This document shows, piece by piece, positions 31,758 to 55,673 of a stretch of DNA of 64,000 nt; position 1 is the first letter of the stretch, and each line of letters begins with the position of its first letter. The stretch spans positions 13,146,001 to 13,210,000 of the forward strand of contig OZ249436.1 of NCBI GenBank assembly GCA_965235115.1, given 5' to 3'. A program made the position numbers and the translations under genes. The stretch is from Laetmonice hystrix (Eukaryota). The notes under the pieces are model-generated. The model worked only from the letters and a program-made list of their open reading frames with translations. It did not search any database and was not told where the DNA came from.

Positions 31758-34235
31758 GATAGTATGTAATCTATTTTAGACCTGAGATAGGGGGGTTTAA
31801 TTCCAACCATAATATTAGTCATTCATTTATCCTCTTTTTTTGAGGAGAGGGGGGTCTGGAAACCCCTGGCTACACCGGTGGGGGGCCCCCTCCCTGGATC
31901 TTCCCCTGCAGACGGCTTGGCCAGCCATGTGCTGCGTATGCTGGTTGGTCTGTATAGACCTTTATTATATATGTACTAGGCCAGTATAACTTCATGCACC
32001 TAAGCCTCTAAGAAGTTTTATTGTGCAAGAGTAGCGGTTATAATTTTAAAAAAATGAAATAAACATATTGCTATTAGGTAAGTTGCCTAATAATAATGCT
32101 GAAAATAATTATTTTTGTTCCTACCAGGGGCAAGGTTGCTTTCATCACAGGAGGTGGTTCAGGCATTGGTTTTACTATTGCTGAAGTGTTCCTGAGGTAA
32201 GAAAATTACCCAACTTAAACATGGGATCAAGTTAATCTTGTGACCAGTCTGTTCACTTCTGTATGATAAACTATTGCAGATAATCTAGCTAGTATGGTAC
32301 ACTCTTTATATGTGTACAATTGAAAATGATCACAAAGCTATCCCTTTTTATTGTTTTACACTTCTTTACAAGTAAAGAGAAGAAATAGATCTTTTATCCA
32401 AATTTATATTCTTGGATCACAGAGTAGCTAACAGGTAGCTAAGGGCCTTTTTTTACTCTGGAGTATTTTACTTTTTTAGACATGGTTGTTCAGTTGCCAT
32501 TGCCAGTCGTAATGTGGATAGACTAGAGGCAGCAGCTGCTACACTTGAACAGGTCACAGGAGGGAAATGTTTACCAGTCAAAATGGATGTGAGAAAGGTA
32601 TGACTTTTAACAGTATGAGGTAGAGTTTAGTTTTTCCCAGTAGAGTGCAAACATGACTAAAAAGTTCTATTACACTGTTTACACCACAAATAATGAATTG
32701 CCTCATAGTACAATGTTAAAAAAGTAAAATCTGTTAAGGGCACAACATTGTCCATATTCCATTATGCTAAAACAGCTGCTAAAAACTGCTTGCCCCGTTG
32801 ATTATGGAACCCATGAGAGTTGGCATGATCACCATGCAGGAATGATGCTTTTATCTGTCCCAGCCAGAAGAAATCATGAGAGCTGTACAGACAGTGTTAG
32901 CCCACTATAAGAAAGTCGACATATTGGTGAACGGTAAGTATTAATCAGTATACACAGCTGTTTCTATTAGAATGCATATTTACAAGACAGTGATTTCTAG
33001 TTAATGCTAGTTGTGAATTGATGTGGTTGAGCGAGCCTTCATTGTTACTATTTACATCCAGGTGCTGCTGGAAATTTCCTCTGCCCTGTTGACAGTCTAT
33101 CCTTCAATGCCTTTAGAACTGTGATTGAAATTGATGCAATGGGAACATTTAACACAAGCAAAATCATCTTTGAAAAATGTTTCAAGGTGAGTATGATTTG
33201 TATTGAATTATTTGTTAAAAAATAATAGAAATTAAATTGTTTTTGTACTCCTTTTTTATATAAACAATTAGCGTGGTCGAAAGTTGCTTTTCGTCTTTCA
33301 TCTGATGTTGTGTTTATTGCCTGGCTCTCCAAGGACTGTGGTGGAGTTATTCTCAATATCACAGCTACCTTGCATTACCGAGGCACAGCACTGCAAGCAC
33401 ATGCTGGATCTGCAAAAGCAGCCATAGGTAACTTTGTATAAGAAAAAAAGTTTTCATAACTTTGCTTTACATAACTTTACACATCGTAAATGCAAATTTC
33501 ATCTTTACTTTAATATGCATCACAGAAGACAATACCAGCTAGTCTCGGTGCTCAGCCTGGTTTTGTGGTTTTTGTATACATATATTCTTTTTCCTAAATA
33601 TGTTGATTTTTTTTTCGATGGTTCTTCTGTTCCCATGCCCATATGTATTTCTTTCAGATGCACTGACGAAGCACATGGCTGTAGAATGGGGATCAAAAGG
33701 AGTTCGTGTGGTAGGAATAGCCCCTGGCCCCATTGCTGACACAGAAGGAATTCGAAGACTAGGTAGGTCATGGCACCAAGTAGACATGAGTGATTGACAA
33801 AAGGGTTCAATAACTGTGAAGGGGATGTATGGTAGATTTGATTCCCATCTCGTGATGCAACTAGATTTATAAATAGAAAAAGGTCATATATTTATTGTAG
33901 CATCCCATAATAAACTCTTACATGTTGTACGGCAGGCTCATTGTATTGTGACTAGACAATGAATATCCAAGTCCATAACCCGGAATCACAATGGATGATG
34001 ACCTGTTTCAGCTGGGGACCTGCTTCCTCTGGCCTTGCCCTTCATCCCCGTAGGCCGACTGGGTACGAGGGGGGACATCGCCAGCATTGCTCTCTTTGTG
34101 TGCAGTGATGGTGCTGGCTTCATATCGGGGGAGACGATTGTCGCAGACGGCGGAGCCTGGCTCTCCAGCCCAAACACTGCCGACCTTCGCAAACACAAGC
34201 TACATGGAAGCACCACGCCAACGAGCAAAATGTGA
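31259..34235 (+). CDS. DECR2: Peroxisomal 2,4-dienoyl-CoA reductase (SDR family), 292 aa, 8 exons
   Basis: Exons 31259-31332, 32128-32196, 32480-32597, 32864-32933, 33062-33186, 33334-33427, 33658-33762, 34012-34235 (879 nt). Motifs: [102 protein letters not shown]-terminal SKM is a PTS1 variant. Confidence 0.95.
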
Positions 34236-36534
34236 AGAATGGTGGCAAATGAGACTTTGGAACCATAATTCTTTTGTAGCTTTGGCAAATACGAAAGATG
34301 GAAAGACACCATCTCACCTTTGTAGAATATGACTGTTTTAAGAGAGGTTTTTGAGAAGAAGTCCCTGTTCTATAACCGACAGCTAGATGTTGGTGGGAAA
34401 CTGGGATGTGTGCTACGGTAATGTAATATGTGCGCGAATGAAACAGATTATAATGTCGTTAAACTGTCTCCCAAATAATTGATAAGAATGAAGTGACTTC
34501 GAGATGAGTTGATTGATGTACCCGGGTAGGTTTGTAAGTATTTGATGGTGCTATATAATTGTAGAATGAACCGATGTGAGTTTCTCAACCTTGGAGTTAA
34601 CCTTACTATAGGTTTCTAATTCGTGTGGCTTCATTCTTCGATCGGTACATCGCTTATAATAACTTAAGAATTTGGTCGAAAGTAAAGATCCATAGCCCTG
34701 ACACTACAATAGCCTACACTTTCATGATGCATGTGACACTGCCCCGTCTGTGTTGCAGTCTGGTACTGCCCTGATGGTCTCAAAAGGTTTCACCGGTAGT
34801 GGTCCTCGTGGTCTGTGCAGAGAGTGTGCATATGCATATAGGTAATGTTACGTAAGATCTATTGTTCTGCGTACAATTTAAGTGCAGAGCTTCATTAAAA
34901 AATCGCTTTCCTACATGAATATATTCTGATTTCTTTTTTTACTGACTTTAAAAATTATTTTTCCTGTATTTTATTTTATATATTTGATCTGACATTCAAT
35001 TGCTCAGAGACCTCGCGCTGTTACCTCCACGCAAAACTATTAATTCAAAATATAAAGGTTTTCCAACTGAGGTAAGAATTCCGGAGGTTGATCTCGGTGA
35101 CCACCCCATGGGGACACAAGAAAAGTCAACTCACTGGGGTACGTGTTCGTCTCTGCCTGTTTGTCCCGTGACTGGTTCGCTTTACATGATACCCTGGGCT
35201 AACCTTCCGAATTCTACCTCTACAGGAATGGAGTCTCATTCGCCAAGCCATTTCTGGCATATATTACAAGCTACGGTGTGCTACATACATGAAATATTCT
35301 AAGCGCCACTTGGCAGTCACGGTAGCACGTAAGCACAAGGAAATGATTCCTGAATGTGCATTGGGGATTCCAAGAGGCAAGCATAGAAACACAGCAATGA
35401 CTTTACTCTATACCGAATTTTGGGGCTGACAGAGGGAAAGGGTAGCTGTAAATTCATTTATTAAGCACAATCGTAAAGCACGTATATTATTATATTATTA
35501 TGGTAGGCACCAATTGGAATCGATGGCTACGATTCCGTTACGCCTCAATCGACTTTATTTCGACATTTGTCGGCTGCACGATTGCCTTGTTACAGAGAGC
35601 GCTTTCCATATTTACAGGAGATTGCATAGTTTACAGTCTCGCATACATACACGAGTAGAACGTCTAAATCCTATAAACTGACCTGTAGCGATTATTCATT
35701 CTTTGTGACATTCGATAAGCACAGAAGGCTGGGTACGCAAGTACCGATACTATCTAGAGTGTACGGACACTTTTAAACAAATTTAGCAACGCAAAAGAAC
35801 AAGTAAAAGTATTTAGAAACCACGAGTATCAGCAAACGGCTGACATTCATGTGTAACGTCATCTTGAGCTGTTCTTCCTTATGGCCATAATGTAGGAAGA
35901 ACCTCAGATCGTGTGTTTGCATAGGCCCACGATGCGAAGTAGTGAATCGTCCTGTCATATTTCTAAAATCGAGGGTCGGTGAGTGGACAAAGGCTAAGAC
36001 GACTTTTGGCTTTAAATCTGATCGGGAGTCGTACATCTAGAGGAAAAGTGAATAAAGACACAAATCCCCGACCCGCATCAATCTAGCTTGTCATTCAATA
36101 ATTCGAGAAAGGCGCATTCGGTTCGGTCTAAAGGAGAAACGGCTGATTTGTTCTGTGACTGTAAAAAAAACCATTCAACCCTACAGTGATTTTTTGGTGG
36201 GGGGGGGGGGGGGGGGGGGCAGCTAAGACCTGTTCCAAGAGCATTCCAAAGTTGTGAACGGGAAGTGAGGCCTCCCCACCATATCAAGGGTCCTGACCAT
36301 TTGTGAACTCCGAGGGGGGGGGGCGCCCCTATCAAAACACCCATTGCCTTCCTATCGCAAACCCCCCTGTCCCCAGCCTGTCCGCAGCCTGTCCGCACAT
36401 GATCAACGCCCTTCCCGCCTCCCTCCAACACCAATTTCATTGATCATTGCCCTCGGACTAGGTCCGATGCCCCTCGCCTATTACAAGCTCATACCGAAGC
36501 AGAAGGCCTGATAGTAGCAGATGGGAAGAATTAA

Positions 36535-37140
36535 TTAAGGCCAAGGGTATGCAGAATATAGTGAGAGAAACAACAATACAATATTTCCCAGAATGGTGTC
36601 CGTGAGCTTAAGGCTACCACTTTTACAGACTTGTTTCTCCTCCGCCAGGAGACTTCGTGCCTGCTCCCTGCGATGTTGCTGAAACTGGTGGCCATTGCAG
36701 GCATGTTTGGCACAGCACTGGACACAGTGGCGCCGTCTGTTTTCTCTGGTTGTGCATGACTCCTCAAACGTGGCGCACTGCGACTTCCCGCGGCAACCAC
36801 GCATGTATCTGAACTCCCCCCACGAATCCTCCGTCGCTGATATCTAAAGGAGACAAAATGAAGACGGATATAAATATACGCATTTGTCTGAGGTACGGTT
36901 GTTTTGCATTGGATTTCATCTTAATCAAACACGAATTCACCAAAAGGCATTAAAATACGTGATTAGGTAGAAATTGTGACATGCTATTGGTCCCCTGGAT
37001 AGAGGCATGGTCACGGCTTATTACGCCGTGATTATACTTACAAAACAGACTTGTGACGACAAACAAGGTTTGGTCTGAGAGTAGGTCAGTTGGCGTTGGT
37101 CACAGTCAGTCGTTCGTGTACAGGTGTAACATCTCAATAC
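36535..37140 (-). other. LU/three-finger domain plus GPI-signal exons of the cadherin-LU gene
   Basis: VLRCYTCTRTTDCDQRQLTYSQTKPCLSSQVCF|ISATEDSWGEFRYMRGCRGKSQCATFEESCTTRENRRRHCVQCCAKHACN...ILGNIVLLFLSLYSAYPWP*. Confidence 0.85.
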
Positions 37141-40100
37141 CTACAACAATTCGTTAGGAATGCGGTTAAAATTGACGGCGAGCGTGTTTCAAAAAGATTA
37201 ATAAGGAGAAAAACCTGTAGATTAAGCCTTTTCGGACCATTGTTCTCGTTCGTCAAATCGTTCTGATGCATTACGATTTGGCGCTCTATGTAGGCCTATA
37301 TTGTTTGCCTCTACCCCTAATTCACAATGATAATTTACAAGAATCGTCATTTGTCTTATTGTATATAGGGAACTGTGATTCAGATATGTCGGGAGTCGAG
37401 GTCCATTTGATGAAATTGATGTCTCGTTAAGAACAGGTGTTTGTGGAGGCGATACGTAGTCATCCATGAACTCCATCATATTCCGCATGGCTGGGTGGTC
37501 GATAGCTTCTCTTTGTAAATACGAAACGCAGCAGCATTGATATGCTAGTGAGTGCAGTCTGATATCCTTTAGCACCTTTCTTTATGGGGAGAAATACCTT
37601 GACAGTGACATAGTAGTAATCTATAAGGTGTTAAAAGCTTTCTCTGAACCATTCAATGAGAATGAAGCTTTAGGTTGTGACGAATAAAGCCATGATTGCA
37701 GGTTTTATGACGAATCTATTTGTTAGGAAAAAAGGACATATATTAGTTCGAGTTCCTGTCGGAATTTATGAAGAAAAGCTATGCGCTCCAAAGTTTACAG
37801 TGAAACCGTACGAACACAATTCATATACAAAGAATGCATGGTTGGGTGTTCTGCCCGAGCTGACACTATCAAAAACATATCTATAGTAGCCTACACGTAT
37901 CTGCAGACAATCTGGCGGACCCACCAACGGCATAGCCATGTTTCTGGTCTAGTATCTGCATCCATGTTAGAGCCTTGCCCTAAGGTATAGTTTGGAGCAT
38001 TATGTCATTGTGAGCCGTCCTAAAATACAGTACGACATGTATACTACATGGGTTTATAAATGTCAAAGTCCTGGAGGAGTTTCAGGTCATGCTATTTCCA
38101 CTCTATAACGGAAACTAACGACTGTTTTTAATGCCAGCCTATCAGCAGGGTAATGGAACCTTCTCCTATCTTTTTCATGGCTAGGAATAATTGTCATCAT
38201 TGCATGTTTGTAAAAGAGAACTTCGTCTGCCATAGGGAAACAGAGATGGCCTTCAAGCTGTCTACTATATTCAGTGTCACCAAAGTTGGAGTGTGGAAAG
38301 TAACGTTGGCTAAAACTCTGAAATGATAGTCTATTGTTGCGTGTTAGAGACCAAGGCCGGATTTATCATGCTTCTAAAAATGGGGATATTTATCTATCAT
38401 GGGTATATACATTCCACGTGGGAACAGGAGATTTGACATAAATACTGAGATAAAACGGCAAAATATAAAAAAACCCGATGACCTTTGATTATGCATTCAA
38501 CTTCTTTTTTAAAAATTTTGAATCTGACATGGCCTTCCCTGCAGGTGCTCGCCTACCTTCGACCCGTTGATGGACGGAGATTCCATTACGTCAATTGATA
38601 TCGACACTGAGCTCGACAATCCACCACCGTCCTGTAAATATAATTATAGTTGTATAAAAGATATACGGAAATCAAGTATAATTAGAGTTGTATAAAAGAT
38701 ATATGGAAATCAAATATAATTATAGTTGTATAAAAGATATACGGAAATCAAATATAATTATAGTTGTATAAAAGATATATGGAAATCAAATATGTATAAA
38801 AGATATACGGAAATCGTATTCACCCTCTGGTAGGGTCAAAATTGTTCCGGACCCAAAAGAAAAATTTCGCTAGGAAAACAATTTCAACAAATCGAATTTA
38901 AATAGGAATGGCATATAATGTAAGCTATACACTATTCCTTACCGTTGCTATCAACTCCAAGGTGAAAGCCCGTCTCACATTGTAATTAAGATTGTCCGTC
39001 AATATTAGACTACCTTGTACTGGGTCAATCATAAAAAAGGACGATTGTTTCTGCAAGAAGATATAATATGTCTGTAATATTACACGCAGAGAGGGTGGAG
39101 AATTTTTACATGTGCATGTCAATATAGGCCTATATTACATCGGGGCGGATCGGCGGGGAGGGGGGGGGGTCGACCCTTTTTCCAGAAACCGTTCGAAGGT
39201 TTAGCCCCCCCCCCCAAACAACAACAATATTTTTACACAAGTATATATAATTATAGTACATTTCCAGACTTTATTTTCAGTCTGATTTTCGGTCAATTCC
39301 TTGCCTAAAACGTAATAAATCACTCAAATTTTTCAATTTTTCTTTCTGGGGGAACATGCCCCGGACCCCCTAGCATATTGGAGACAAGTAAAGAAACAGC
39401 TCTGGATCCGCCCCTGTACATGTACATGCTGTCTAAGAAAGTTGATTCGTGAATCTCTTTTGTAATTATACTGTATAGATGGATACAATAATGTGTATTG
39501 TTGTGTACAAAGATTGTTTTATTTCTCCCAATCGCAAGGAGATATGCAGGAGTCGTAAGTAAATTGGAAGCAATGAATCTGTGTGTGAAAAATAAGGACG
39601 TACGCGCAATGAAAAGGTGACGAGGCTCCAAACACCCGTGTCGGGGTCGCCGGCAGTTACCTGGTATACCTTCGTCCCTATCGACGCCGCCTGTCAACAG
39701 TCAATCAACAGTAATTATGTTATTTATACTGTCCCCATCGTGTTGGCAATGAAAGGTGTCAAATGATATACACTGATATCAAGGTAGGAGACGTTTCAAC
39801 ACCCCACATGGTCCTATACGGCCTACATACAAGCGTTCGATACTTTCAGAGCCCCTCTATACTGAAAATCTTCCCACAGAATTCATTCAATAGGAGACAA
39901 AACGTGACAAGGTGAACCACTGTAATAGTCACGCAGATTTCACTTGGATCTCCTGATTGGATTCCAGGTTGACATGAAAAAGAACATGGAGGCCAGTCCT
40001 CCAGTCAGTATAATATGTGGCACGCACGCACGCACCCCCGCCAGCCCCAGTACATACATGTACAATGTACATAAAAAAAAGTATTAGGGGTATTTTTGTT

Positions 40101-43100
40101 GTTTTTTTTACGTTTCATTTCTCCTCAAGGAGTACCACACCAAACCATATCAAATGCGTTTTGTTATAAAAGTACCCTCTCTCTATACTTGAAATGGTAT
40201 ATGTTCAGTCCATGGTTTAAAACTTGTGACAAAATGCCTAATTTTGGAAAAAGTAAGAAAATGTCTATGGAGAGGGAGCAATCTTAATGTGTTATTTTTA
40301 ATGTATTGGCAGGGTTTCCGCCAGAGAGTAAAATGGGTAAAATTCCGTACCCTGACATTTTTCCAGGGTACGGATCCGTACCCTCAAAATCGTTGGGTAA
40401 CCATTTTTCCATGAAGTGATAAAAACAGGCATGAGAATGGAAAATTGGAAAAAAAATCGGAAAATCTAAATCCCCCTTGAGGAAGCCCAGTACAGGTACA
40501 GTAGTCTGGAGTAGGATAGCGCCCCCCCCCCCCCCCCCCATATACACTGAAATTTTTCTCAACGGATTTGCATCGATCTCATGCAAGAATGACCAAAATC
40601 GCTTGAAAAAAATCGGAATTCCGCCGATCGGCGGAAGATTCTGATGCATGTAAAAACCTTCTGATGATGCCTTGAGCAACTTGAAGGAATCAAATAATGT
40701 TGCACAGTATGCAGTGTTTATTTGATTAATTCAGATATACCCCTCCTCTGGTCCGTACCCTAAATCTTCTTCTGGCGGAAACCCTGATTGGGTAATACAT
40801 TGTACACCCTTAAAGTGTGAAAGGGGCATGGTACCTATCCGCTCCACCACTTAGGCCTACACCTAGATAAAGGAAGAGTTAGTTGAAGTGACAAAGGGCT
40901 TACCTCTGAGACACGGGTGTAATATGACGTTTCACTGAACCGTGGCCTGTTGTCGTTAACATCTAATACAAAGAGCGTGCACCAGCGTTGAACCTGCGGA
41001 TAAAGACATGCATGACCGCAACATCAAGTTTTTGTTTTAAAAAATGTTGCTAGGAAATTGTATTATTCCCTCTCATTAAAACGATGTATTCTTGAGGGTA
41101 TAAGCCTATATCAGCAACATGTTTGACCGAGTAGAGGGATAGGCCTACGGTGGCCCATATAGGACATGCGATTAATTTAATACTATTTATAATTATTTTT
41201 CTTAATATAATATGATTTTTTTCCTGTAAAGCTATTTACTTTTCTCCCGAATTCCCACCGCAGTGGTAATAATGCCCACTGCGGTGGTAATAATTACCAC
41301 CGCGGTGGTAATAATTACCATCGCGGTGGGAATTATTACCACCGCGGTGGTAATTATTACCACCGCGGTGGTAATTCGGGAGAAAAGTAGTAAAAAAATC
41401 ATAAATAGTATGAAATTGATCGCATGTTCTATAGGTATAATTACGAAAATGGTGGTTCTCTCTCTAGAGAGTCCACATTGGCTACTTTAGCTGTGATTAA
41501 GAGACCCGTTTCCATGCGTAGGTCGACGGTTCGGGTATTCGTTCCGGTTCAGAAATCTAGGGTTCCGTTTCGGTCTGTCGTCCCGTCCAGACACTGGACG
41601 AGAACAGTGATACAAGCCTGACTATCGAAAACGAAACCTACAGTACACACAGAAATGGGTGTTGCGGGACAGGTTTCCTCAATTTGTCTGAAGTAGAGGT
41701 AGCTTGGTTACTTACCACATTAACACCATCCGTTGCAACGAACAGCAGACTGTATTCTTCTGCTGCCTTATAAAATTAAAAGGATATGCGGATATGTCAA
41801 TCTCAAAGACGTATTATGCCTAATGAATACATTGAAAGCCCGTCGCATACCCTCTGTAGTTCCCAACACACGCATAGAAAAAAAGAGAGTAAACATATTT
41901 GTTCCAAAAATAGAAATGCTTTACGATAACCCCACAAGTAGGCCTTTAAGTAACCGACTCTATACTACATTATAGTCACTGAATGCTATTCTATACCTTG
42001 TTGTATATTCTACCCTGTATAGCAGTGCATCAAGGCGTGTGACGGAGCACATGTCTTATATCACGTTTGTAACCAAAGACAAGTGTATATACAAAAATTG
42101 TTATTGGACCATGTCATTTGTTAGCAGCAGAAAACAACTGTGATATTACAGGTGACGAGAACAGTATTCTAGAAATACCTTTCTCTCTTCTACGCACGGG
42201 AAAGCTTTGAGGTCGGTGCGTGGATAAATTGTGAATATTGTCTGTTGAGACAAATTTTCCTTAATATATTATCGCTTTGTTTTAAGGGTAAAAGTTTGTT
42301 CACGACTGATGTGACCTGTAGAAACATCAATTCGGTTAAAGGTCACACTTAGGAGTATTAGGTTATAGATTTATTTCTATATAAGAGAAGTTATATAGTA
42401 ACAAACGAACAAAATTCGACCACCTAAGCAAATTTGTCGTGTACAGTATAGCCTATAACTGCATGAAAGAGTCTTGCAGGTAAACGAATCTCTGGCCTGC
42501 GTTTCAATACCAAAAGATATCTATGCCAAAGGTATATTTGCCAAAGATGTCTTTTGGACTAGTGCAGTCTGGATAGGGAGAGAGTGAGTGTTTCAATAAA
42601 AACCTCGTACCTGGCTCCAGCGAGGTTTTCAAAGATATCTTTGGGCTTTATTGAAATGCGACTACGAATCCGAAGTAATATGAGGGCATAGACCTTATTA
42701 CGCCCTTTATTTGCAGCGGAAATAAAAAGGATCCGACGCCAGGAAGCCTCTCAATGCATATTGTACACGCAGACGCGGTACAGCGCTGTACAGCAAAATT
42801 ATCAATGAAGCGTGACGCTGGAAGACCATTGCACACAGACGCAGCACAACACGTGGGATGACCTAAGTGACACACCAAGAAGAAGAAGAAGAAGAAGAAG
42901 AAGAAGATGAAGAGAAGAATAAGAAGAAGAAGATGAAGAAGAAGAGGATGAAGAAGAAGATGAAGAAGATGAAGAAGAAGAGGATGAAGAAGAAGAAGAT
43001 GAAGAAAAGGAAAAGGAAAAGAAAAAGGAAGAAGAAGAAGAAGAAAAAGAAGAGGAAGAGGAAGAAGAGGAAGAAGAGGAAGAAGACCCCCACAAACGTA

Positions 43101-46100
43101 GTTGGACTATTCATTTCACATTACGTTAGAGCGATTAAAAGATGACGAGCTGCAACGCGCTGTCCCCCCGTTTCACAAAAAGTTCTTAGGCATAATCTTA
43201 TCGTAACTTTACGAAAAACCGCGTTTGCGTTGCACAAACCGAAAATCGTATCTTAGCGCCTCGCAAGTGGTCCATAAACAGCTACGATTATGGCCGATTT
43301 TAAGAGCCCGACGGGGCAGCTCTTAAGGCCTTCAGAAACTCTTAATGCAATAAAAAAATCATTTGTTTGCTTAAATTTAATTGCAAATTCGCGAAATAAT
43401 ATAAAGGTCGCAAAGTTTGTTGGGGGAGGGGTTATTTAAACCCCTTCCCCAACAAAAATCTGCTGGCTCACTAAACCAAGGACAGCTGGCCTCCAATATA
43501 AGATTAAAGAAATGTATTACCACGTACAGCTCAAAAGCATCGCCTATTCAGTTGGGTGTGTTCTGGGCATACAAATTACTCCAACCCCACCCATGACTGG
43601 GAGGACCGGGGAAGTCGCATTGGGCCTTTCACACCGCAGCCGATGCCGATGCCGATACTGATACCGAGACCGAGGGCGACACCGATGTCCACACCGACCT
43701 TGGCTGCAGTGTGAATGATGCACCGATGCCAGACACCGGTGCCGACATGTAGATCGCGACTGGTTCCCGACACCGGCCCGGCTGCCGGCCGTCCTCCGCG
43801 TCGGTGAGGGATTGCTCCGATCAAGATGCACGGGAACCTCCCGGTCTCCAGGAAAATCGGTGGCCGACGTTTGGAAAATAGAACATGTTCTATTTGACCG
43901 TCGGCGTCAGTATCGGTCTTGGTGTGAATGCTCCCACTGGAAATAATGTGTTGTGAAAAAATATCGGTGTCGCCGTCCGTATCGGTGCCAGTATCGGCTG
44001 CGGTGTGAATGGGCCATTATACATAACTCTCTGCCGACCCCGGCCAGAGCCGACCTCACAGTGGGCGGTCTGTGTATACAGAGACTGCAACCATCCTAGT
44101 GAAAAACATTATTGTGAAGACTATAGGCTATCCATGAAAACTTATGTGAAACTTTTGTGAAACGGGGGGTATAGATCTACCGGAGTCGTCAGATATGCTT
44201 TTTGGCTCGTTTCCTTTGGTATCAAGATTTTTTTTTGGGGGGGGGGGGATCTTCAACAGTGAAGGCGGAATGTCTGATAACGAGGTTAACAGCACTCTTC
44301 CAACCCCCTTCCAATATTATATCACCCGCAGGCTGAGCATTGTGCTGACCGGGGCAAAAGCAGGGCCGGATCCAGGATTTTTTCAAGGGGGCGGGGGTTG
44401 CAACAACTTGCCAGGTGAAAAAACACTTTATTATTACCAAGATATTACATTTATATTTTGCTCCTTAGCAAACTAACATAGCGCTGTGCACTGTGCATTG
44501 GGGCAATCTGGTGGAAATCTGGCTTTAGCATGTTGTTCTGACAGAATTTGTCTAGATTTCTAAGGGGGGTTGCACCCCCCCCTTCTGGATCCGGCCCTGA
44601 AAATACGTGTAGCCTATTTATCACTGAGTTGTGTAGCCTACATGGAAGCGGGTCCAGTGGATTACATAATATTATTTGTTTTGGTGGCTCCTTGCCTCAC
44701 GGGCGACGCGGCCATCCAGCCCCCCCCCCACCCCCACCCCCACCCCCACCCCCACCCCCCCACCCCCCCCCCCCCACCCCGACTACGTAGGTGGGTTACA
44801 GGTACGGGTAGGCAAGGAGAACATTAGGCGACAGCAGCAGTGGATATGGATGAAAACAATGGCCGTGGACCGTACTTGGGTGGGAGGGGGTGATTTACGA
44901 GATGAGTAGTGCCTGGCACGAACGAAATGGACCGTCATTTATAGTTAAAATAGCCCTAGATCTATAGAATCTATGTCAAAGCTATATGTACGGTACATTG
45001 TAGACAAAACCCAGTAATTTCAAAATCCCAATTCCCCTTTGGGGGATGGGATATATAGCTTTGACATATATTTTAACTTTGACGGTCCATTTCGGTCCCT
45101 GCCCTGGACCGAGGCTGTCCCACTGTGGGTCCATAAGGTATATCTCGGTCCCTTCTTTCTTTGTAGGGTTCGTTTCGGTAAATATCTGGTACCCTAGGGT
45201 CCGTTTCGGTAGGGTTCCGTAGTTTGACGGTCCGTTTCTGTCCCTGCCCTGGACCGAGGCGGTCCCATTGTGGGTCCATAAGGTTATCTCGGTCCCTTCT
45301 TTCTTAGTGGGGTTCGTTTCGGTCCATATCTGGTCCCCTAGGGTCCGTTTCCGTCCGTTTCCGTCCCTTTCGGTCGGTTGCGGTATTTAGTCATACCGGC
45401 CGAAAGTTGTAACTTTCCCGCCAGATTCAGGTCCCGCAGTACTAAATCCAAATCCCCGTAAACTTACGATACGATTCTTAAGGTTACGATGCGATTATGA
45501 AGTACGAGACTTTCAAATTTAAGATTTCGTTTGTGCAACACTTTTTACGATCATTCTTAGGAAAACTCTTATTCGTAAAATACACGATTTTTTTCGTATC
45601 GTAAAATACGATACTTTTGTGAAACGGGCCCTGTGTGGCGTCTGTGTGCGTATAGGCCTTAAACACCCCGGTGTCGCCTGACTACCTCGATATCACAGAT
45701 CGCCCTTCACATGCAAGGCCGGCGCGGACATTGCAGGGATCTTCGATCACGCCATACCAACTATACCACAGACCCGGTTATTGTGTTAATTGCGCTATAC
45801 TCTGTCCCCAATTAAGCTCACTTATGGTTGTTGTGAATAATATGTTTATAACAGATATAACGGCTTGGTCCCGCTATTCTGATGTAGATCACGGACGTTC
45901 TGGCACGTGAGCGAGGGGAACTAATAAAGAGGCAGTCACTATTTCGTCTGTCTGACTTTGCCCATGTAGATCCATGTAGGCATATCTTCGTGGGGCTATT
46001 GATTTTAAAGGGAATCTAGTTTTCTCCTATCACAATACTTTTAATTAATTAATTAATTAATTAATTAATTAATTAATTAATTTACTTATTTACTTATTTA

Positions 46101-49100
46101 CTTATACTTACCTACTTATTTACTTATTTACGTACTTACTTATTTATTATTCATTTATTCATTCATTCATTCATTCAATGAATGAATGAATGAATGAATG
46201 AATGAATGAAAAATTCGTACACACGACCTCATACACTTTCCCCCCAAAATAGGTTCCCTGTTGAAATGACATCATAATACCGTATTGTCAGTGTGATGGA
46301 CCGTCATAGCCACAACACCAATAAAAACGCATGAAATAGTCATGTGAGTTACATACACTGTTGTGATAAGATCTTGTAAGTAACAGGAAACCTTTTTTTT
46401 TGGAAAAATGACTTACGAGATTTTATCAGAACGCCGACGATGTCCTATCGATGATGTACGTGGTCCAGAGAAATGAAACCCTTTCATGTAATGTACTACA
46501 TCAGAGATGAAGAACTATTCTGTCCATGTCAACGCCACATCTCTTATCCCGTCTCGGTTGGGATGAGTGAGTGAATGGGGTCGTGACACGGCTGCTCACG
46601 TTTCTGATGACTGTACAGGTGTGGGGCAGACACACGGGGCCTACGCCCTTCTCTCTATGATCACGCAAGGCCATCGGCGCGGATCATGAAAGGAATAGGA
46701 TCTGTACCCAGATCGACAGGCGCTGAGCCAGATTCCCCACGTATTTGTTGACTTCAATATAATGTACGACGTCACGCTGTTATCTCGGTAACCATGTTTG
46801 TTAGGTTAAAGGTTCCCACTCCACTCGCCAAACTTCCTGGAGACTACTTCGCGATTATTGAACTTGCCAGATTGAGACTGCATGAGTCCCCAGGTAGTCT
46901 CGAGGTAAAGTGACCTATAGTGGCACTGGGGTTTGACGGCCTCAGGTGGGGTAGGTATGCCTCCTGAATGTTGGCATTCTCAATTCTTGAAAAAGGCCCT
47001 TGTCCTATGCATGCGCATGCGGAACCGGAAGCAATAATGGCCTATGTTTGGTAGCCCTTGGTACACTTTTGTGATTGATTTTCATCTTGGTTTTGAAGCA
47101 GCTGAAACTCCATGAAGCGCATCATTACTTTAGTACCTGGTGGTAGGATGACACGTGAGATATATACTAATATTCCATTGGTTCTGACGGCCTACACATC
47201 CTCCTAGGTCTACCAAACGGCCTTTTGTTGTTGCCCCTTAGCCCCTTTAGAACCGTATTTCTATTAAGAAATAATTTCCCTTGACAGATCAACGGGGTCA
47301 AACGTCATCAAGATTAAAAAGAGTTGGTGGTTGGTGGGTTTACGTCATGTCGGCAAATAATAGGTCAACAGAGAAAAAGAAAATGTCAAGCAAATTGAGT
47401 ATCGCTCTATGTCCTGAGCCAAAAGCCCGCTCTGGGCTAACCCTTGGCGACATCAATGAAATACAGTCTACATGCACGTTTATAGGGACTACATGCTACG
47501 ATGGGTGTCAAAGCGCCTTCACACCAGACGCGCGCGGTGCGCACGGCGCGACAGTTTTAAAATAAACACGTTAAAATCAGCAGGGGCTTTGAGTTTCAAA
47601 CCGGCCGCAGACGGCGCGCGCGACAATTCTGGAATTTAACATGGTTTTAGAAAAGTCGCGAGTGTCGCGCCCGCCCGGTGTGAAAGCCCCTTAATGGTAC
47701 CAATTAATCCACTTCTAATTGTGTTCGTCATCAACGCTTTCCACGTGCTCATCAATGCTGCCGTGTTTGAAAAACAAGTTTTAAAGAACTAGGCCTAATT
47801 TAGTGTAGGCTACCACGATAACTACGATTGGTGTAGGCCTAATTGAATTTAGGCGTACACCTAGGCCTACTAGTAGGCCTAAACCTATGCCCTATAGGCC
47901 TATGTAGGCCTAATAAGCCTACCTTCCCAACCTTCCCTTTCCTTCAAATGCACCAGGTTAGCCTAAATCAGATAGGCCAACATTGGGCCCCTATAACTTT
48001 GATGTCATGATGCCTCGCCCCGTCCCCCGAGTAAGTAGGCCTCTAGGCATAACTTATTAAAGGTCATCGCTACAACCGACTGCATCACGACTCGACTCCC
48101 CATCGCCCGTCGATATGAAAAGTCGGGTCGCGTCGCAGTCGGGTCGTCGGGCCTAGGTCTAGGCCTTTGATAAGTAGCCTATATCATTAAACTATACGGC
48201 GTATATGCCTACAAACCTACAGGATCTTGTTACCACCGATGTTGGCGCTCCACAAAATGTCCAGGACCTGCAATATTGTACTAACCTCTCGGTCGAGCTG
48301 CTTGGACAGGCGCACGACGGCCTCGGTGTGATTGAGTGACGTCACGCTGAGGATGTCGTTGGCAAGTTCGCCCTTGAGATCAAACTGAAGGGTCTCGTCG
48401 TCAGGGTCGGACGCGTTAAGGATGGCCACAACGGAACCTGCACAAGGCCAAGTGCTACTTCATTATACATGGTCAGGAGTGGACGACACAACACAGTCCA
48501 CATGGCTTGCTGCCTGGCACGGCCTTTGATTGACGAGCATTTGGCGGACGGTCAAAGAAACCTGCACATCGACTAACGTCGGGCTCAGCTACAGAGAACG
48601 ACGTAAACGTGCTGATTTTTAATGCCACATGTTTGTAAAACCTATAGCCTGTATAGGCCTGCGAACAAAGACAATTATCCAGCGAGTTTCTGTAGCTGAC
48701 ACAACAGGCCTATATATAGGGGGAGGGTGCGAGTGCGGGAGGGGGTGCGAAGGGTGTGTACGCACCCACCTCCCATGAGTCACCACTTCATGTCCACTTT
48801 TTGCAAGTCCTAAATGCACATAGCACAAGCCTATATATAGGCCTTGAAATCTATACATATATGAAATGACAAAGGCTTCCCTCCAAAATAAATAAATAAA
48901 TAAATAGGCCTAGTAAATAGGCCTCTATAGGCGAAATAAAAATATATCGGCCCCTCTCCCCAAGGCGTTAGGCTACACGTAGGCCTATAGGTGGCTTGTA
49001 GGCCTAGCCTATATTATCATGATCACTCGCAAAGGTCCATTTTCAGAAGACAGCAGAAAAATATATCCGTATAGATCTAAGGCCTAGCCTTAACTTTGAT

Positions 49101-51940
49101 TCAGTGGATAGAAAATCCAATCAGATTCTTAGAAAGGTCCACCCCAATTTCTATAAAGGACCAGATTGAACACCAAAGTATTATTTCTTTTGTTTCACTT
49201 TTGGCGTATAATATTATAGGTTGTAGGCTACACTATGGAACCCTGCTGGTGGAGTGTGATGCGCGTGATTTGAGGCCGGTGACCGCTGCTACACGTAATA
49301 GATCTTCACTCGGGGAGTCTTTGATGTACGAGGTGTATTACCATCTGCTATATGCATCAGAGCACGAAGATCGGTGCAGTAGGCTCCACATAAAGATACA
49401 CAGGCTTCCTGGATGATACATGTCGAGGCCAGGGATCTCTGGGATCCATGAGTAGAACTATATGACAGGGTTAGGTCGGCTGAACCTGGACAATGACAGG
49501 CTATAACGGTTCAGATATTGATCCATGCAGCTATGTCCATGAAGGGCACGTGTGCTAAAAGTCTAAAGACCACAAGGTACGGTATTCGTGCTCTGATCTC
49601 TTTGTTCTCGGCCCCCGGCTGACCTGTCCATTCTATACGTTGTTGATGAAACAGACGATAGCAGTAAAAGGAGATCGACAGTTCAGCCTCTTTCCGCTAG
49701 TGTCACAACCCCCCGACCATTGCCGTAACCATTATCAGTACCAGAATGGTACCGCCAGAATAACAACCGCTTGAGTACCTCACTCACCCTTCACCTGTCT
49801 CTCCGTCACAGATCGGAACCGATTCGGATTTCTGTTGGTGCTAAAGCCCAGAAACCCAGTTAGAAAATTTGGCAGATACAGCGGTTTTTAATAAGAGGAT
49901 TGTGCCGTCGCAATAATAAAATCTATTTATAATCTTATAATCTCATCGTATAGAATGTGAGTATTGGTAAAACTCGGAGATAAACAGATATTGAAGTAAA
50001 CCCTTCATGACGGTACTCGGTCCAAGGTCCCACGAGGCCTTGTAACGTGAATCCCCATGCACCTTAACAAGCAGAGCGTACGCACTCTAAAACAGATTGG
50101 TTAAAATGACCTTGATAATGGTTAGATTTAACTAATCTATAGATGGTAGATATGTGTCCGACCGAAATCTAGTTTTGGTAGTTTTTTTTTACCAATCCAT
50201 GGTTAGAAAATTAACCAAAATACGTTGATCAATTTAAACAAATTGTTGGTTAATGTTGTATACTTCGCTATTACTGCCAATCCAATTGGTTGGACACATT
50301 TCAATCAATATTGGTCGATTCAACCAATATCTTGGTTAATTTCAACCAATCTGTTTTTAAAGTGTAGTAATCCGACTTTTTCACTTTTCGTGTCGTAGCG
50401 CTGTCTGATCTCAAACGGGAGCCGTCATCGGCACTATGTGAACGCCGCATTATGCGGCGTTATGCAGCTCTTACGTCGGGGTATTGGCAAAGAAAGGGGC
50501 AGGTGTGATGGTTATCCAGTAACATCACATTGGTTGTGAATCACAACCAATGTGATTGGTGACCCAATGACCAACTTATGGGTTCCGAGTTAACCAAATT
50601 GTTGGTTAAAACAACCAATATAGGCTCAACCAATGAGACCAATCTGTTTTTAGAGTGGCCTATTATAGGCCTACCGGTACTGACATAAACTTACCTATTA
50701 TGGCATCTTCAGACACCAGTAAAGTTGACGGGAAATTAGTCCACTGGGGCGCCTGGTTCGCACCTATGGATTAAACATTCAGTCGTATATATATATACAA
50801 ATCCAGAAATAGACTCAGGCTTCTTATACACATTCTAATAATAATATCCAGTGGCGGATCCGGGGGGTGTTAATTACTGGCATTGCAACCCCCCGTTACG
50901 TTCGTTACATACATCTCCCCCTTGGCTCAAACATGGATATCATTTAAAAAATATATATATAGCCAATGGTGCGATGTAAAAAAAGAATATAAAAGAGTAT
51001 TTTGAATATCGGGTGTAAGCGGTATATGACTTAGATACCAACCAAAGAAGCACCTTTTTTTCGTGAAAGAGCCAGATTTTTTGCCGTAAGGTGTTACACT
51101 GAAATGTGCTTTTCATCTCGGAGGCCGAGCTTTGGCGCCTGAGAAGGCAAGATGAGTTGTAGTATTTCTATAGACTACATCAGGCAGCACCGTGCCAGAT
51201 AACGTGTACAAGAGGGCTGCCCTGGGCAGGGATATATGGTAAACCTTGAATCGTGTCCTCCATGTCTCCAGGCTAATGAAATAATATATCCAGGGAAGCG
51301 GAACAATTGCCTGTGTGGTGTGATTCGTGCACAGGTAGCAAATACATCTAAACATTATAGGAGTCTACATAATCTCCCCTGGCAGGAAATCTTTCCTTTT
51401 GTACTCGATGAAACACGTGCAATGCATCCTAAGCCAGGTACACTTTATACTTACGTGAATTTGTTTTCCAATAATTAACATGACTTGTGTCGGTCTTCAG
51501 CAATGAACGCTAACGACAACTTTCCCTGTAGAATCCCTCCGTTAAACCACACCTTTCCGACCGCTTTCATTATGTCCCATATACTTATTTTCAGTGGCGT
51601 ACCGGGGGGGGGGGGGGTGCTTGGGGTGCTCAAGCACCCTCTCAATTTGCCCATTTTTTTTAAAGTCAATGGGGGAACTGCCCACAGCCCCCTCCCAATT
51701 TGCAGCGCCTACGACGTTGGTTATTTCCAGCACCCACAGTTTCTGGGTCCGCCACTGCGGCAGCTAACATCACTTAAGACTGTTAAGTAAAACACATGAT
51801 CACTTTTCCGGATTAACAAGCATATTATAATAAAATGACACCCCCGTTACACTACTGACTCGGCCAAGGAAACGTTACCGACCTGATCGACTGGCGATGC
51901 TAATCCAGATAGAGATGACAACCAGGCTGTAGCGCTCCAT
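36535..51940 (-). CDS. Short cadherin-LU fusion protein: signal peptide, 2 cadherin repeats (CDH23/CDHR-like EC1-2), Ly6/uPAR domain and GPI-type tail (~365 aa, 10 exons)
   Basis: Phase-compatible exons (minus): 51940-51883 (MERYSLVVISIWISIASRS), 50763-50695 (NQAPQW...LLVSEDAIIG), 48437-48286 (ASDPD...LDRE), 41766-41716 (YSLLFVATDG), 40993-40904 (VLDVNDNRPRF...VSE), 39690-39604 (TAGDPDTG), 39050-38943 (FMIDPVQGSL...LNYN...LIAT), 38631-38557 (DGGGLSSSVSISIDV), 37140-37042 (LRCYTC...C...C...CF), 36843-36535 (RGC...C...C...CVQCCAKHACN...hydrophobic tail*). Total 1098 nt, open throughout. Confidence 0.8.
38636..38816. repeat. Tandem repeat, ~38-bp AT-rich unit, ~4.5 copies, intronic
   Basis: aaatataattatagttgtataaaagatatacggaaatc repeated immediately beside a splice acceptor. 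Confidence 0.9.
40310..40786. mobile_element. MITE with CAGGG termini
   Basis: cagggtttccgccaga / tctggcggaaaccctg, 16-bp TIR. Confidence 0.7.
41235..41392. repeat. Palindromic element with internal 21-bp tandem units
   Basis: tacttttctcccgaatt / aattcgggagaaaagta flank repeats of ttaccaccgcggtggtaataa. Confidence 0.8.
42876..43085. repeat. (GAA)n-rich polypurine microsatellite
   Basis: Run of gaa/gag/gat triplets inside an intron of the cadherin-LU gene. Confidence 0.95.
43164..44169. mobile_element. ~1-kb TIR element with a nested GC-rich MITE (~43621-44016)
   Basis: ccccccgtttcacaaaaagtt / aacttttgtgaaacgggggg; inner ttcacaccgcagccgat / atcggctgcggtgtgaa. A related end (tttgtgaaacggg) recurs near 45620. 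Confidence 0.7.
44915..45380. repeat. Inverted repeat plus ~144-bp tandem duplication (probable transposon remnant)
   Basis: cgaaatggaccgtca / tgacggtccatttcg; the block ~45079-45222 is repeated at ~45223-45360. Confidence 0.6.
46040..46210. repeat. Compound tetranucleotide microsatellite (TTAA)n, (TTAC/TTAT)n, (CATT)n followed by (AATG)n
   Basis: Read directly; the CATT and AATG runs are mutually inverted. Confidence 0.9.
50083..50657. mobile_element. CACT-ended MITE(s) with aacca/tggtt subrepeats
   Basis: cactctaaaacagattggt at 50083 pairs with accaatctgtttttaaagtg (~50364) and accaatctgtttttagagtg (~50657). Confidence 0.65.
51592..51757. mobile_element. Short dispersed repeat with cagtggcg / cgccactg ends
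   Basis: Terminal inverted 8-mer; the body is shared with 9688-9842. Confidence 0.7.
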
Positions 51941-54829
51941 GCTGGCCGGCCCACAGCCCAACATCATCTGACAGTCCCAAGGCTCACCATCAAACAACAC
52001 TCAGATCCATAACTTGACCACGTCAGGCAGGACCAAGGAGACACTGGCCAGGCGTTGTTTGGGGTGACCAGGGCATGGGTTCACACATTTACCTGGAGAC
52101 ATTGACCACGTCCCACACCACCTGTCCTCACGACTCACTCACGCCAACCACCCACGTCGTGTGGCAACGCTTAACGGCAACAAGCACGCGTACACCACAA
52201 TGTCCTGGCAACTATATCGTCATCGATCGATCAGTTAAGTAATCCACTTCCAGACGTAGGTCAATCCCTGCCTTGTTCACAGTAATGGTCATTCTTCATC
52301 ACTCACTGGTTATAATAAAGCTATGATAAGTTACACGTTATCTTTCGTATGTTTGGCATGCTGTCGCCCGCGTTGATCAGGGGTTTTTCGACATGAATGT
52401 TCCTTTAAGCACTATAATAACCGCTGACAATCCAAACCATATTCCGTATTAGAAAGTTTTTACACAGTGCGAAGTCATGAAACGGTTGTCAAGAAGGTGA
52501 AGCTCGAGCCGTCCCCATCATGGACACATCGTACGGTCGATCCTCGCCCTACAGTCTCCCATACCTGTATCTGCTGGTCATCACGCAGACAGAGCTATAA
52601 TATGACCAAAGAGAGCAGCGGACTGACTTATAGCAGCCTGCTGCGACACTTCAACAGACCTTTCTTATAACGTGCATATATACTCGTAAATCTGCTCTAA
52701 TACTCGGCAAAAACAATGTTTATATGGTTGATTAATCTCGCGAATTTTGATGAAATCCGTAAAGTATGAGCCCTCCCATTCTTATCTCAGACTGCTTAAA
52801 TTCGAGAGCACGTCATTCGGTTTGGGTAACCGAAGGGTGGGAAGGTTTTTGCCAAACAAGAACGGTCGAGAGGAGCCAAGCCCTGTGTCTGTAGCGTAAT
52901 TCAAGCAGACGGAGTTTGCAATACTTCACGTCGATACGGCCACGGTCGCCTGCACCGCCGCGCCCCGTCGATCACCCTTGTCGTATAGAACCGAGTTTCA
53001 CCACCGCCTGTCTCTGGTCATTTCTGCCCCTGTGGCCTGACATGAACGCTTTGGTCGCCGTGAACAGAATGAACGTCCTCTACGAGCCATCTAGAACGTG
53101 ACGACGTCACATGGACGCAGACGACCATACCGACCCCAAGCCGACCACGCCCGCCCTAGTCTATAATGTACAAATTGGTGGCAGCGATCAGGGGGATTTT
53201 GGCGGTAGTCGCTGATTATCCTAATGCTCTCATCTCTCCTGGTCCGCCAATGGGTGTTGCCAGTATGAACTGTGGAATTAGCGTTCCTTATTATGATCAG
53301 AGTACATGATGAAAAGCATGGTTACAGTCAGGGCGTTTAGAGGTCCCCTATATTGGCGACATTACTTGATCACACATTACATGTACTTGCGGGCCAATAA
53401 CAAGGTGAAGGGTGTCGAATGGCTTCGTGTCTATACCAGCCATTTGAGATCCTCAAAATTATACTATTATGCAGTTGTAGAATATTCAGATTTACGCGTT
53501 GCGTATTAAAAAAAACAGTTTACCAGATTTACCTTATTTTTTTAGTAGTCCTCTATACCGTTTATCGATTCACAATCGTGTACAGGCATACAATGTGCCC
53601 CATCCGCATATATTTGGGTAATTGTGATGTCATTACGTTGCAAGAACGTTTACACAAAAGAAATAATGATGTAGTACCGTATATATTTGATGCTTCTAGA
53701 CCCTACGCGTGCACCTGACTATCGACTGGATCCTTTGATCGATGCCAACATTGAGCCCTTTATCTCTATAAAGATTAGGCATGAACATCTGAAAAAAGGT
53801 TTATCTAGTATTGCTGTGCGGCAATAGATTGTTTATGTAAGGGATTCAAAGACCCGAATCTTGCGGTGGGTGTCGAATTTAGAGAGAAAATTTGGACATA
53901 GCCATATGTATTTAAAGCTACAACATTTTTAAAACCTGTAAAATCAGCTTAGTATCACTTGCAAAACTCAAATCAATTGAACTGAGACCAACCATAAAGT
54001 GAGAACGCTCAGCTGAACAGCTGATCTTCGAACAGCTTCGCCATTTTGGATAACCGGTCAACAGGGGAATTCCCTTATGCGCGCGCAGATGATCTACTTA
54101 CGCTATCCTTTTCAGCTTTTTAGCCGATTTTGTTGGATACATCGATCTTCGTCGCTTAAAGCCCTTTCCTCGGGGGCATATTTGCAAAGGAAGCATGCAT
54201 GGGATTCCCTGGAACTTGGGACTATTATGGGATGTTGTTCGACGTCATTTGCAGCGCCACTTTCGAAGAGAGGAGGCAAATTTAAACTTCTACTATTATC
54301 ATATTATAGCTTCGGCCCGAATCCTGGATAACAAAGATCATCATACTGCAGCAAGTGTATCTTCATGTATATATGTCAATAGGTTGCTATCGGTGGCCGG
54401 TAATTGTTATTTTCGACGTTACGTGCAGTGTGTTTTTAAGTAAAGCATATCGTATCATGGTGGCTTTAACAACGCGGTAACAGGAGAGTGACTTTACAGT
54501 GTAGGTGCATGTCATTACAGGGTACCAGAATTTAAACACATTTTGGGTACATTTGTTGGGTTGAGGAGAGCACCGACTTCCATGTACCCCAGGGCCATAC
54601 TTTAGATTTCCTTTCATGTTTTCATCTCTTATTTCAATTCCCTATTATATAAATTATACCTGCACACATTAGTTTCCAGTTCTGACTTTGTCAGAAAGCA
54701 AACGTGATGGGATATTTTTGGCCCCAAAGTTTTCATCACTGCAATGCCACCTGGTGGTTTTGGAAGCTGGTCATTGTAAGGAAGAAATAAGAATCAGGGA
54801 CGAATATATGAAAGGAAATCTTGCATTAA

Positions 54830-55270: not shown

Positions 55271-55673
55271 TAAAATTCTTGCTAAAACAAGCTGTGGAGA
55301 AAAATCAATTAATTTGTTATTACCAACCAGACAAAAGCACAATGAGAACAGCTGAAATGATGGTTTTACAGGAGATCATTTATTCAATAACTCCACTACC
55401 GAGCCAGAAACTATTGTTTAAAGCAATAATACACCGAATCCATTACAACCCAGGTGTCACCATGCACATTTGGTGAAATTGACTCAGGAATGAATTGCAT
55501 GTGTTCAGTGTATTGCTGGTGCTCATGGCAGCTAGACACAAACAAGTGAATCGCGTTATGGTAAAACGGCGCCAAACAACTTGATTTCAGCTTTCCTCAA
55601 TGTGCTTATGTCTTGTTGGTAAAAAGATTAATTTAATGATTTTCTCCACAGCCGTTTTAGCAAGAATTTTGAA
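55271..55673. repeat. Long imperfect inverted repeat (MITE-like)
   Basis: aaaattcttgctaaaacaagctgtggagaaaaatca / tgattttctccacagccgttttagcaagaatttt. Confidence 0.65.

Follow-up and report, generated by a model that had tools for sequence, protein, structure and literature searches.

Can cadherin repeats and a Ly6/uPAR (LU) domain be parts of one and the same protein? The question is raised by a locus on the minus strand of a 64,000-nucleotide stretch of the Laetmonice hystrix contig OZ249436.1 (positions 13,146,001 to 13,210,000), which is referred to below as the window and whose own positions are used throughout. An earlier interpretation of this DNA, made from its letters alone (the sequence-only reading), had proposed that the locus encodes a miniature cadherin fused to an LU domain that carries a glycosylphosphatidylinositol (GPI) anchor signal. 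Judging by gene anatomy, we consider it fairly probable that the cadherin and LU exons form a single fused gene, and fusion explains the locus most economically. Such a gene would, rather probably, encode a signal peptide, two repeats of the cadherin-23 tip type with one calcium-binding linker between them, a Lypd6-type LU domain with six disulfides and a GPI signal. Each half supplies what the other lacks, the cadherin half a signal-peptide-like start and the LU half a GPI-like anchor tail.

Exon Structure of the Locus

Short exons and long introns characterise the animal DNA of the window. Cadherin and cysteine-rich pieces were first seen in stop-to-stop reading frames, and exon borders were set by reading the flanking sequence. 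The locus was found on the minus strand exactly as had been proposed, with the ATG at 51940, the end of the stop codon at 36535 and the key junction between the donor at 38557 and the acceptor at 37140. The ten phase-compatible exons of the sequence-only reading (51940..36535) likewise form one open frame, with GT and AG at every splice site. Its protein length of 365 residues could not be reproduced. Canonical sites yield 367, 366 or 356 residues, depending on how the exon 1 donor (51883 or 51879) is paired with the exon 2 acceptor (48648, 48641 or 48611). Exons 3–10 have canonical AG/GT borders throughout and form a single open frame up to a TAA codon whose last base is 36535. Every intron from 3 to 9 is in phase 0, and the introns of the gene range from 136 to 6519 bp in length. 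Exons 3–8 contribute 187 codons without a stop, which, by our own arithmetic, would occur by chance with a probability of ~1e-4.

Exon 1 (51883..51940) carries the ATG and the signal-peptide-like hydrophobic start that had been read from it before. It ends in phase 1 with the donor CAG/gtcggt; the alternative donor, 4 nt further on, is in phase 2. Exon 2 is ambiguous by phase alone, since 584 phase-compatible candidates (with GT or GC donors) leave the frame open. It was placed at 48574..48648 by homology to the paralogue described below. So placed, exon 2 is 75 nt long and in phase 1-1, is separated from exon 3 by 136 bp and encodes the first strand of repeat 1, ending in FSVAEPDV. Its counterpart in the paralogue is 72 nt long, also in phase 1-1, and is followed after 215 bp by the next exon of that gene. 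A comparison with the PDB gave 0 matches for the exon 2 open reading frame (ORF) of the window and antibody light chains (E about 0.5–1) for that of the paralogue.

Another cadherin-like ORF, at 49438–49370, was rejected as exon 2 because it has no usable GT donor in its frame, and the frame is broken if the strong donor at 49342 is used to reach the acceptor at 48437. This minus-strand ORF (...VYLYVEPTAP) resembles the first strand of repeat 1 and keeps the spacing of the paralogue to the motifs of the next exon. It might be what is left of a duplicated exon 2.

The Cadherin Repeats

The sequence-only reading counted exactly two cadherin repeats, and a six-frame motif scan of the whole 64-kb window bears this count out, with cadherin motifs found solely in this gene. 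The calcium-site motifs AEP, DPDD, LDRE and DVNDNRPRF, then SEA, GDPD and TDGGG, follow one another in frame and make up one complete calcium-binding linker. Motifs past repeat 2 are degenerate (LNYN, DVMES), as expected of a last repeat.

The middle of repeat 1 (DPDD ... LDRE) is encoded by exon 3 (48286..48437), and a further strand of the same repeat (EEYSLLFVATDG) by exon 4 (41716..41766). Exon 5 (40904..40993) carries the linker DVNDNRPRF together with the first residues of repeat 2, which continues through exon 6 (39604..39690; GDPDTGVW) and exon 7 (38943..39050), the middle of the repeat, where the DRE-type site has degenerated to LNYN. Exon 8 (38557..38631) completes repeat 2 (TDGGG ... 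DVMESPSINGSK); it has lost the inter-repeat linker motif and ends with the phase-0 donor AAG/gtaggc.

Domain tests on the spliced model were run against two cadherins, and Pfam scans were made on single exons. With an oyster FAT4-like protein, the spliced model gave 168.9 bits overall in phmmer, residues ~42–225 aligning with consecutive repeat pairs at 37–43 bits per pair. Exon 7 matched Pfam Cadherin (PF00028) at profile positions 41–74 with 14.9 bits (E 0.036), a score obtained with a single short exon and to be read against a cut-off of 28.8; exon 6 matched positions 9–35, collinear with exon 7, with 13.1 bits (E 0.13; same cut-off). No Pfam Cadherin match was obtained for exons 3, 5 and 8, each scanned singly. 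The cadherin exons remain below the Pfam threshold because single exons are too short.

Comparison of the same exons with the PDB was more specific for three of them. Exon 3 matched only cadherin-23, at residues 29–73 of the first extracellular cadherin repeat (EC1; 2 of 2 matches, E 0.2 and 0.45). Among true cadherins, exon 6 matched cadherin-23 residues 122–148, and exon 7 matched EC2 of cadherin-23 (residues ~151–185) in 10 of 14 rows, with a best E of 0.004, the other rows being CELSR1 and CDHR2. The linker exon 5 was generic and matched 104 cadherin chains, the best of which was protocadherin gamma A9 (1.7e-14). As can be seen, exons 3, 6 and 7 map in order onto cadherin-23, and among solved structures the tip of the predicted protein looks most like EC1–EC2 of cadherin-23, at E-values that are modest even at their best. 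Designed SAKe repeat proteins, which were the top PDB rows for exon 6, were discounted as spurious, since no matched stretch was above threshold.

A Paralogous Long Cadherin on the Same Chromosome

A search of the 627-Mb assembly of the same genome with exon 3 retrieved one other place, C1:40976422-40976568 (E 0.008). This place belongs to a long multi-repeat cadherin on the same chromosome, which in C1:40976130-40996000 contains at least 13 linker motifs in 20 kb (30 kb examined). Its first two repeats and window exons 2–8 have the same exon cuts at every junction and 31–58% identity, and no frame is broken in the window cadherin exons relative to the paralogue. Exons 5, 6 and 7 have identical lengths in the two genes (30, 29 and 36 residues); identity to the paralogue is about 36.5–39% for exon 3, 43% for exon 5 and 58% over 24 residues for exon 6. 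The counterpart of exon 8 continues through a DVQDTAPYF linker into a third repeat, whereas exon 8 of the window is shorter and ends at a new donor. Since the exon cuts are shared and exon 8 has been shortened at a new donor, we identify the cadherin module, on sequence comparison, as an old, partial copy of the long cadherin's 5′ end, namely of its first two repeats. Neither this origin nor the likeness to the cadherin-23 tip had been pointed out in the sequence-only reading. The long gene is the probable cadherin-23-like parent of the two-repeat module. Its EC2 exon gave a more generic result with the PDB (47 matches, with CELSR1 first and many to cadherin-23), and its EC1 exon matched nothing there at E <= 1. 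A tandem repeat with a ~121-bp unit lies in the intron behind the linker exon of the long cadherin (2300–3150 of the examined piece).

A partial duplicate of a longer gene might be decaying, in which case the cadherin exons would be non-coding and the LU exons alone functional. Besides the partial nature of the duplication, the relic-like ORF at 49438–49370, which lacks a usable donor, would fit such decay. One would not expect a decaying copy to hold six exons and 187 codons without a stop at a protein identity of 31–58% to its paralogue, nor, without selection, to keep all GT-AG sites and all calcium motifs of the EC1–EC2 linker. That the module is still open and spliceable argues for selection, and we consider decay very improbable. 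Three exonic variants were seen in the cadherin part in the DNA sequencing runs, two of them synonymous and one Ser-to-Ala, a number too small for a selection test.

The LU Domain and the C-Terminal Tail

A full LU domain had been proposed for the C-terminal part, and exons 9 and 10 indeed carry it: LRCYTC...RGC...CVQCCAKHACN, with 12 cysteines in 81 residues and an Asn after the last cysteine. Exon 9 (37042..37140) encodes the N-terminal half (LRCYTC ...) with five cysteines. Its acceptor is fixed in phase 0, with no upstream extension, because an in-frame TAG lies directly upstream. Exon 10 (36535..36843) encodes the C-terminal half with seven cysteines and the CN end, followed by a conserved linker of ~27 residues, KSGS, the hydrophobic tail and the stop codon. 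The ten plesiotypic cysteines and the LxCxxC ... CCxxxxCN framework constitute the LU consensus (PMC6600238).

The cysteines of the window domain occupy positions 3, 6, 12, 25, 31, 49, 55, 62, 72, 75, 76 and 81, and the disulfide cysteines of Lypd6/Lypd6b are reported at positions 3, 6, 15, 24, 31, 50, 56, 61, 72, 75, 76 and 81 (PMC7582953). All 12 agree to within 3 residues, and 7 of the 12 are at identical positions. By cysteine spacing, we class the predicted domain as a six-disulfide LU domain of the Lypd6/Lypd6b type. The intron that splits it (37041–36844) falls between cysteines 5 and 6, in loop 2, and leaves the tail in exon 10. This is the canonical layout as described in the 2019 review, in which an LU domain is encoded by two exons that meet at the tip of loop 2, the second of which also carries the GPI signal; an ordinary gene adds a signal-peptide exon to this pair (PMC6600238).

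Pfam (PF00021, PF00087, PF16975) reported 0 families for exon 9, exon 10 and the two relatives described below, each scanned alone. Half LU domains are not detectable in this way, since clear LU halves on the plus strand of the window also gave 0. Language-model look-alikes of exon 10 were headed by an unnamed cluster at 0.88, followed by LYPD6B, LYPD1, LYPD6-like and Ly6E at ~0.83–0.87; being below 0.9, these serve as leads only. The same holds for exon 9, whose look-alikes were QVR and Toxin_TOLIP/UPAR_LY6 clusters at 0.77. Exon 10 is present in a single copy in its own genome. Its profile gave only an irrelevant DsbA match (E 1.4) with the PDB.

An exhaustive comparison of the 102-residue last exon with 1.84 billion protein representatives revealed two relatives, at 5.6e-13 and 4.8e-6, with 40% and 39% identity, respectively. 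They are unnamed proteins of 100 and 95 residues from one source. Both keep all seven cysteines, the linker (H..QEA..LLA) and the hydrophobic end, and both begin at the second LU half, which implies that their LU domain is cut at the same place. Among longer proteins, none of the 57 candidates for the last exon reached E <= 0.01, and none of the 44 candidates for exon 3 reached E <= 0.1. A metagenome scan returned 171 stretches that matched the patterns, 0 of which were confirmed.

The sequence-only reading had also described a hydrophobic tail running up to the stop codon, and this is what we see: KSGS is followed by a 6-residue spacer and 19 mostly hydrophobic residues. Judged by eye, the tail is like a GPI signal, and the protein may be expected to be GPI-anchored. 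In two of the three DNA runs, four variants fall within 29 bases of this tail (36592–36620), one of them synonymous and the others changing Ser to Asn, Ser to Cys and Ile to Met. These three changes belong to the other haplotype, and both serine changes keep small residues at the presumed attachment site.

One Gene or Two

We infer that exon 8 is spliced to exon 9. The putative intron 8 that this splice would remove is 1416 bp long, inside the gene's own intron range, and the cadherin exons have no alternative ending, because a convergent short-chain dehydrogenase gene, and then IFT140, close the locus downstream. The distance from exon 10 to the end of the dehydrogenase gene at 34235 is 2.3 kb, and beyond that gene lies IFT140 (minus strand). 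No transmembrane or cytoplasmic exon is present, in agreement with the sequence-only reading. The sole downstream transmembrane-like ORF (33986–34369, single copy) was rejected as an alternative last exon, since it is the antisense of the last exon of the plus-strand dehydrogenase, which matches adh_short_C2 (1.9e-8) at profile positions 198–234 of 236.

Alternatively, the locus may hold two genes, a secreted two-repeat cadherin produced by reading through the exon 8 donor and a separate GPI-anchored LU gene whose signal-peptide exon has gone unrecognised. Read-through of the donor leads to a stop after 15 codons, and an ATTAAA signal is present at 38132, ~370 nt further on, so that a secreted two-repeat protein is possible. 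Ordinary LU genes have three exons, one for the signal peptide and two for the LU domain (PMC6600238), and for five annelid genomes a 2026 survey, as far as its main text goes, gives only stand-alone LU and receptor-kinase architectures (PMC13719153). Compatibility in phase 0 is also weak as evidence for fusion: with introns 3–9 all in phase 0, a frame match at the exon 8/9 junction is a 1-in-3 event and carries little weight.

A separate LU gene would need a first exon of its own. However, no ATG-initiated hydrophobic exon with a phase-0 donor, and thus no signal-peptide-like first exon in that phase, was found in the 1416-bp gap between exons 8 and 9, and the 1.4 kb directly behind the last exon of another gene would have to accommodate a promoter, a 5′ untranslated region, a first exon and an intron. 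A weak phase-2 start candidate at 38496 might be joined to an alternative acceptor that lies a few bases within exon 9, but this candidate has an Arg within its hydrophobic run and weak donors, and its use would delete two residues before the first cysteine. A phase-0 hydrophobic ORF at 46343–46281 could also provide a start, but it sits in cadherin intron 3, so that five cadherin exons would need to be skipped. Taken together, we regard two separate genes as rather unlikely, though by no means negligible. Should transcripts show two genes, the locus would be an ordinary one, in which a Ly6 gene neighbours the gene of a small secreted cadherin.

One locus could also give rise to several products by alternative splicing, with a secreted or short cadherin form made beside a cadherin–LU–GPI form, or with cadherin exons skipped. 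Exons 4–8 are all symmetric (phase 0-0), and any of them can drop out in frame; the read-through stop behind exon 8 would serve a short form. The loss of a single exon would, however, break a cadherin repeat, and we hold this explanation to be improbable.

Several further observations weigh against a fused gene. Pfam calls the cadherin exons below threshold only and calls neither LU half, the exons having been scanned singly. The relatives of the last exon are ORF fragments of 95–100 residues without context, and no relative with both halves was found. LU exon sets are usually flanked by phase-1 introns (PMC6600238), unlike the LU exon pair here, which is flanked by phase 0; phase 1 is the usual state and does not define the family. 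The 5′ end is tentative, with a second signal-peptide-like candidate for a first exon at 55379 and many phase-compatible candidates for exon 2. The three sequencing runs, which derive from one sample and one study, consist of genomic DNA contigs that run through introns, with no transcript among them; in these runs, none of the 15 joints listed, of 48 over 36000–52400, falls at an exon border. With these points counted, a single fused gene retains the fairly probable standing given to it at the outset.

Comparison with Known Proteins

The nearest known system for the N-terminal half is cadherin-23 (CDH23), which has 27 repeats and pairs with protocadherin-15 through EC1–EC2. Apart from the match of exons 3, 6 and 7 to EC1–EC2, the likeness extends to the paralogue, a long multi-repeat gene with the same exon cuts. 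Unlike cadherin-23, the window gene has just two repeats, lacks transmembrane and cytoplasmic parts and shows no linker motif behind repeat 2. We therefore do not class the predicted gene as an orthologue; from its sequence, it is a derivative of the cadherin-23 tip.

T-cadherin (CDH13) resembles the predicted protein in that a cadherin ectodomain without a transmembrane segment ends in a GPI-type signal. It is a classical-type cadherin with five repeats and a prodomain, whereas the window protein has two non-classical repeats of the cadherin-23 type, and its GPI signal belongs to the LU exon. To our knowledge, T-cadherin has no LU domain. T-cadherin chains were seen only as weak PDB matches of the paralogue exon. 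Calsyntenins share with the window gene the number of cadherin repeats, which is exactly two; in calsyntenins, these are followed by an LNS domain, a transmembrane segment and a cytoplasmic tail, none of which was found in the window gene.

On the LU side, Lypd6, Lypd6b and Lynx2 also have twelve cysteines, an Asn after the last of them and a C-terminal extension before the GPI site. Unlike the predicted protein, they are stand-alone, and no sequence match to them was obtained through Pfam or through phmmer against the PDB. Lypd6 is reported to bind LRP6 or nicotinic receptors (PMC8494132). The 2019 review names GPIHBP1, SP-10 and the TGF-beta receptors as the few cases of an LU domain in a foreign context (PMC6600238). 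In GPIHBP1 and SP-10, the LU exon pair with its GPI signal forms a C-terminal module behind an unrelated N-terminal part, as in the window gene, but this extra part is a disordered acidic segment and not a set of folded adhesion domains (PMC6600238).

Non-standard LU architectures have been described in molluscs, arthropods and cnidarians by the survey of invertebrate LU proteins in Acta Naturae (2026), which lists, in its main text, LU domains joined to G-protein-coupled receptor, immunoglobulin, MAM, C1q, fibrinogen-like, Kunitz, thioredoxin and permease modules; from its five annelid genomes, it reports stand-alone LU and receptor-kinase forms only (PMC13719153). The predicted protein is like these in joining LU to another module and differs in that cadherin is not among the partners listed. 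The word cadherin has 0 occurrences in the survey and in the 2019 review, supplements excluded (PMC13719153, PMC6600238). The sequence-only reading knew of no described cadherin–LU architecture, and our literature search agrees with it: no paper containing both "LU domain" and "cadherin domain" was found, subscription journals and the supplements of LU papers lying outside the search. Broader literature searches likewise found no paper that describes such a combination.

Proposed Origin and Function

One can envisage the following course of events. Long ago, the 5′ end of a long cadherin-23-like gene, encoding the signal peptide, EC1 and EC2, would have been duplicated. The exon for the EC2–EC3 linker would then have been shortened at a new phase-0 donor, and the copy would have become spliced into a phase-0 LU exon pair that had a GPI signal of its own. 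The resulting protein would reside in the outer membrane leaflet, where an LU stalk would hold a calcium-stiffened EC1–EC2 tip. The tip may bind a partner cadherin, either a protocadherin-15-like protein or another copy of itself. The protein could then compete with the long cadherin or form a short link for adhesion or recognition, and a second binding surface might be offered by its LU domain. The sequence-only reading had suggested that such a protein could couple calcium-dependent adhesion to the modulation of a receptor or channel.

Drawn out in full, this would make the protein a lineage-restricted mini cadherin-23, in which a GPI-anchored Lypd6-type LU domain carries the EC1–EC2 tip. 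As a short raft-resident link, or as a competitor of the full-length cadherin, it would bind a partner of the protocadherin-15 type in trans or in cis, and its LU domain would bring an LRP5/6- or nicotinic-type receptor to the contact. We offer this complete picture as a speculation that is unlikely to hold in all its parts. If it is true, an LU domain would here have been recruited for the first time to anchor an adhesion protein.

A real cadherin–LU protein would also mean that GPI-anchored cadherins arose a second time, independently of T-cadherin. Since its two repeats are those that cadherin-23 uses for partner contact, the protein would be a natural minimal tip, which could be expressed and probed for calcium-dependent binding. 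Leth and colleagues (2019) regard LU, in the text of their review, as at most a "proto-module" that almost never stands beside unrelated folded domains (PMC6600238). A cadherin–LU protein, if real, would be a clear counter-example to LU as a mere "proto-module", and a dated one, because the donor gene, with its matching exon cuts, still persists on this chromosome.

Other Features of the Window

A candidate second LU gene with a foreign N-terminal part lies on the plus strand at 7956–10436. It comprises a 278-residue Ser/Thr-rich tandem-repeat ORF (7956–8792), a Ser/Thr-rich phase 0-0 exon at ~9325–9426 and an LU exon pair at ~9941–10033 and 10173–10436 with a hydrophobic tail. All its introns are in phase 0, as in the minus-strand gene, and Pfam gave 0 families for the pair. 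As a second case in the window of a phase-0 LU pair behind non-LU exons, it was counted in favor of the cadherin–LU fusion.

Downstream of exon 10, the dehydrogenase gene occupies 32439–34235 on the plus strand, with adh_short and adh_short_C2 matches on three exons, and ends with ...TSKM at 34235. IFT140 exons follow at ~19278–28947 on the minus strand, where the first beta-propeller was matched at 1.3e-28 and the IF140/IFT172 TPR region at 3.1e-28. The upstream neighbours, also on the minus strand, are a Gln/Pro-rich exon at 62036–62839 that ends in a DUF4749 match (7.9e-7) and a 283-residue low-complexity ORF with GRPEFGSG-type repeats at 56126–56977.

Within the cadherin–LU locus, the depth of contig words in the DNA runs rises from ~40–60 to thousands at 39829–45845 and 51316–51862, and introns 1, 3 and 5 therefore contain high-copy repeats. 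A tandem repeat is present at 41230–41490 and a purine-rich simple repeat at 42800–43130.

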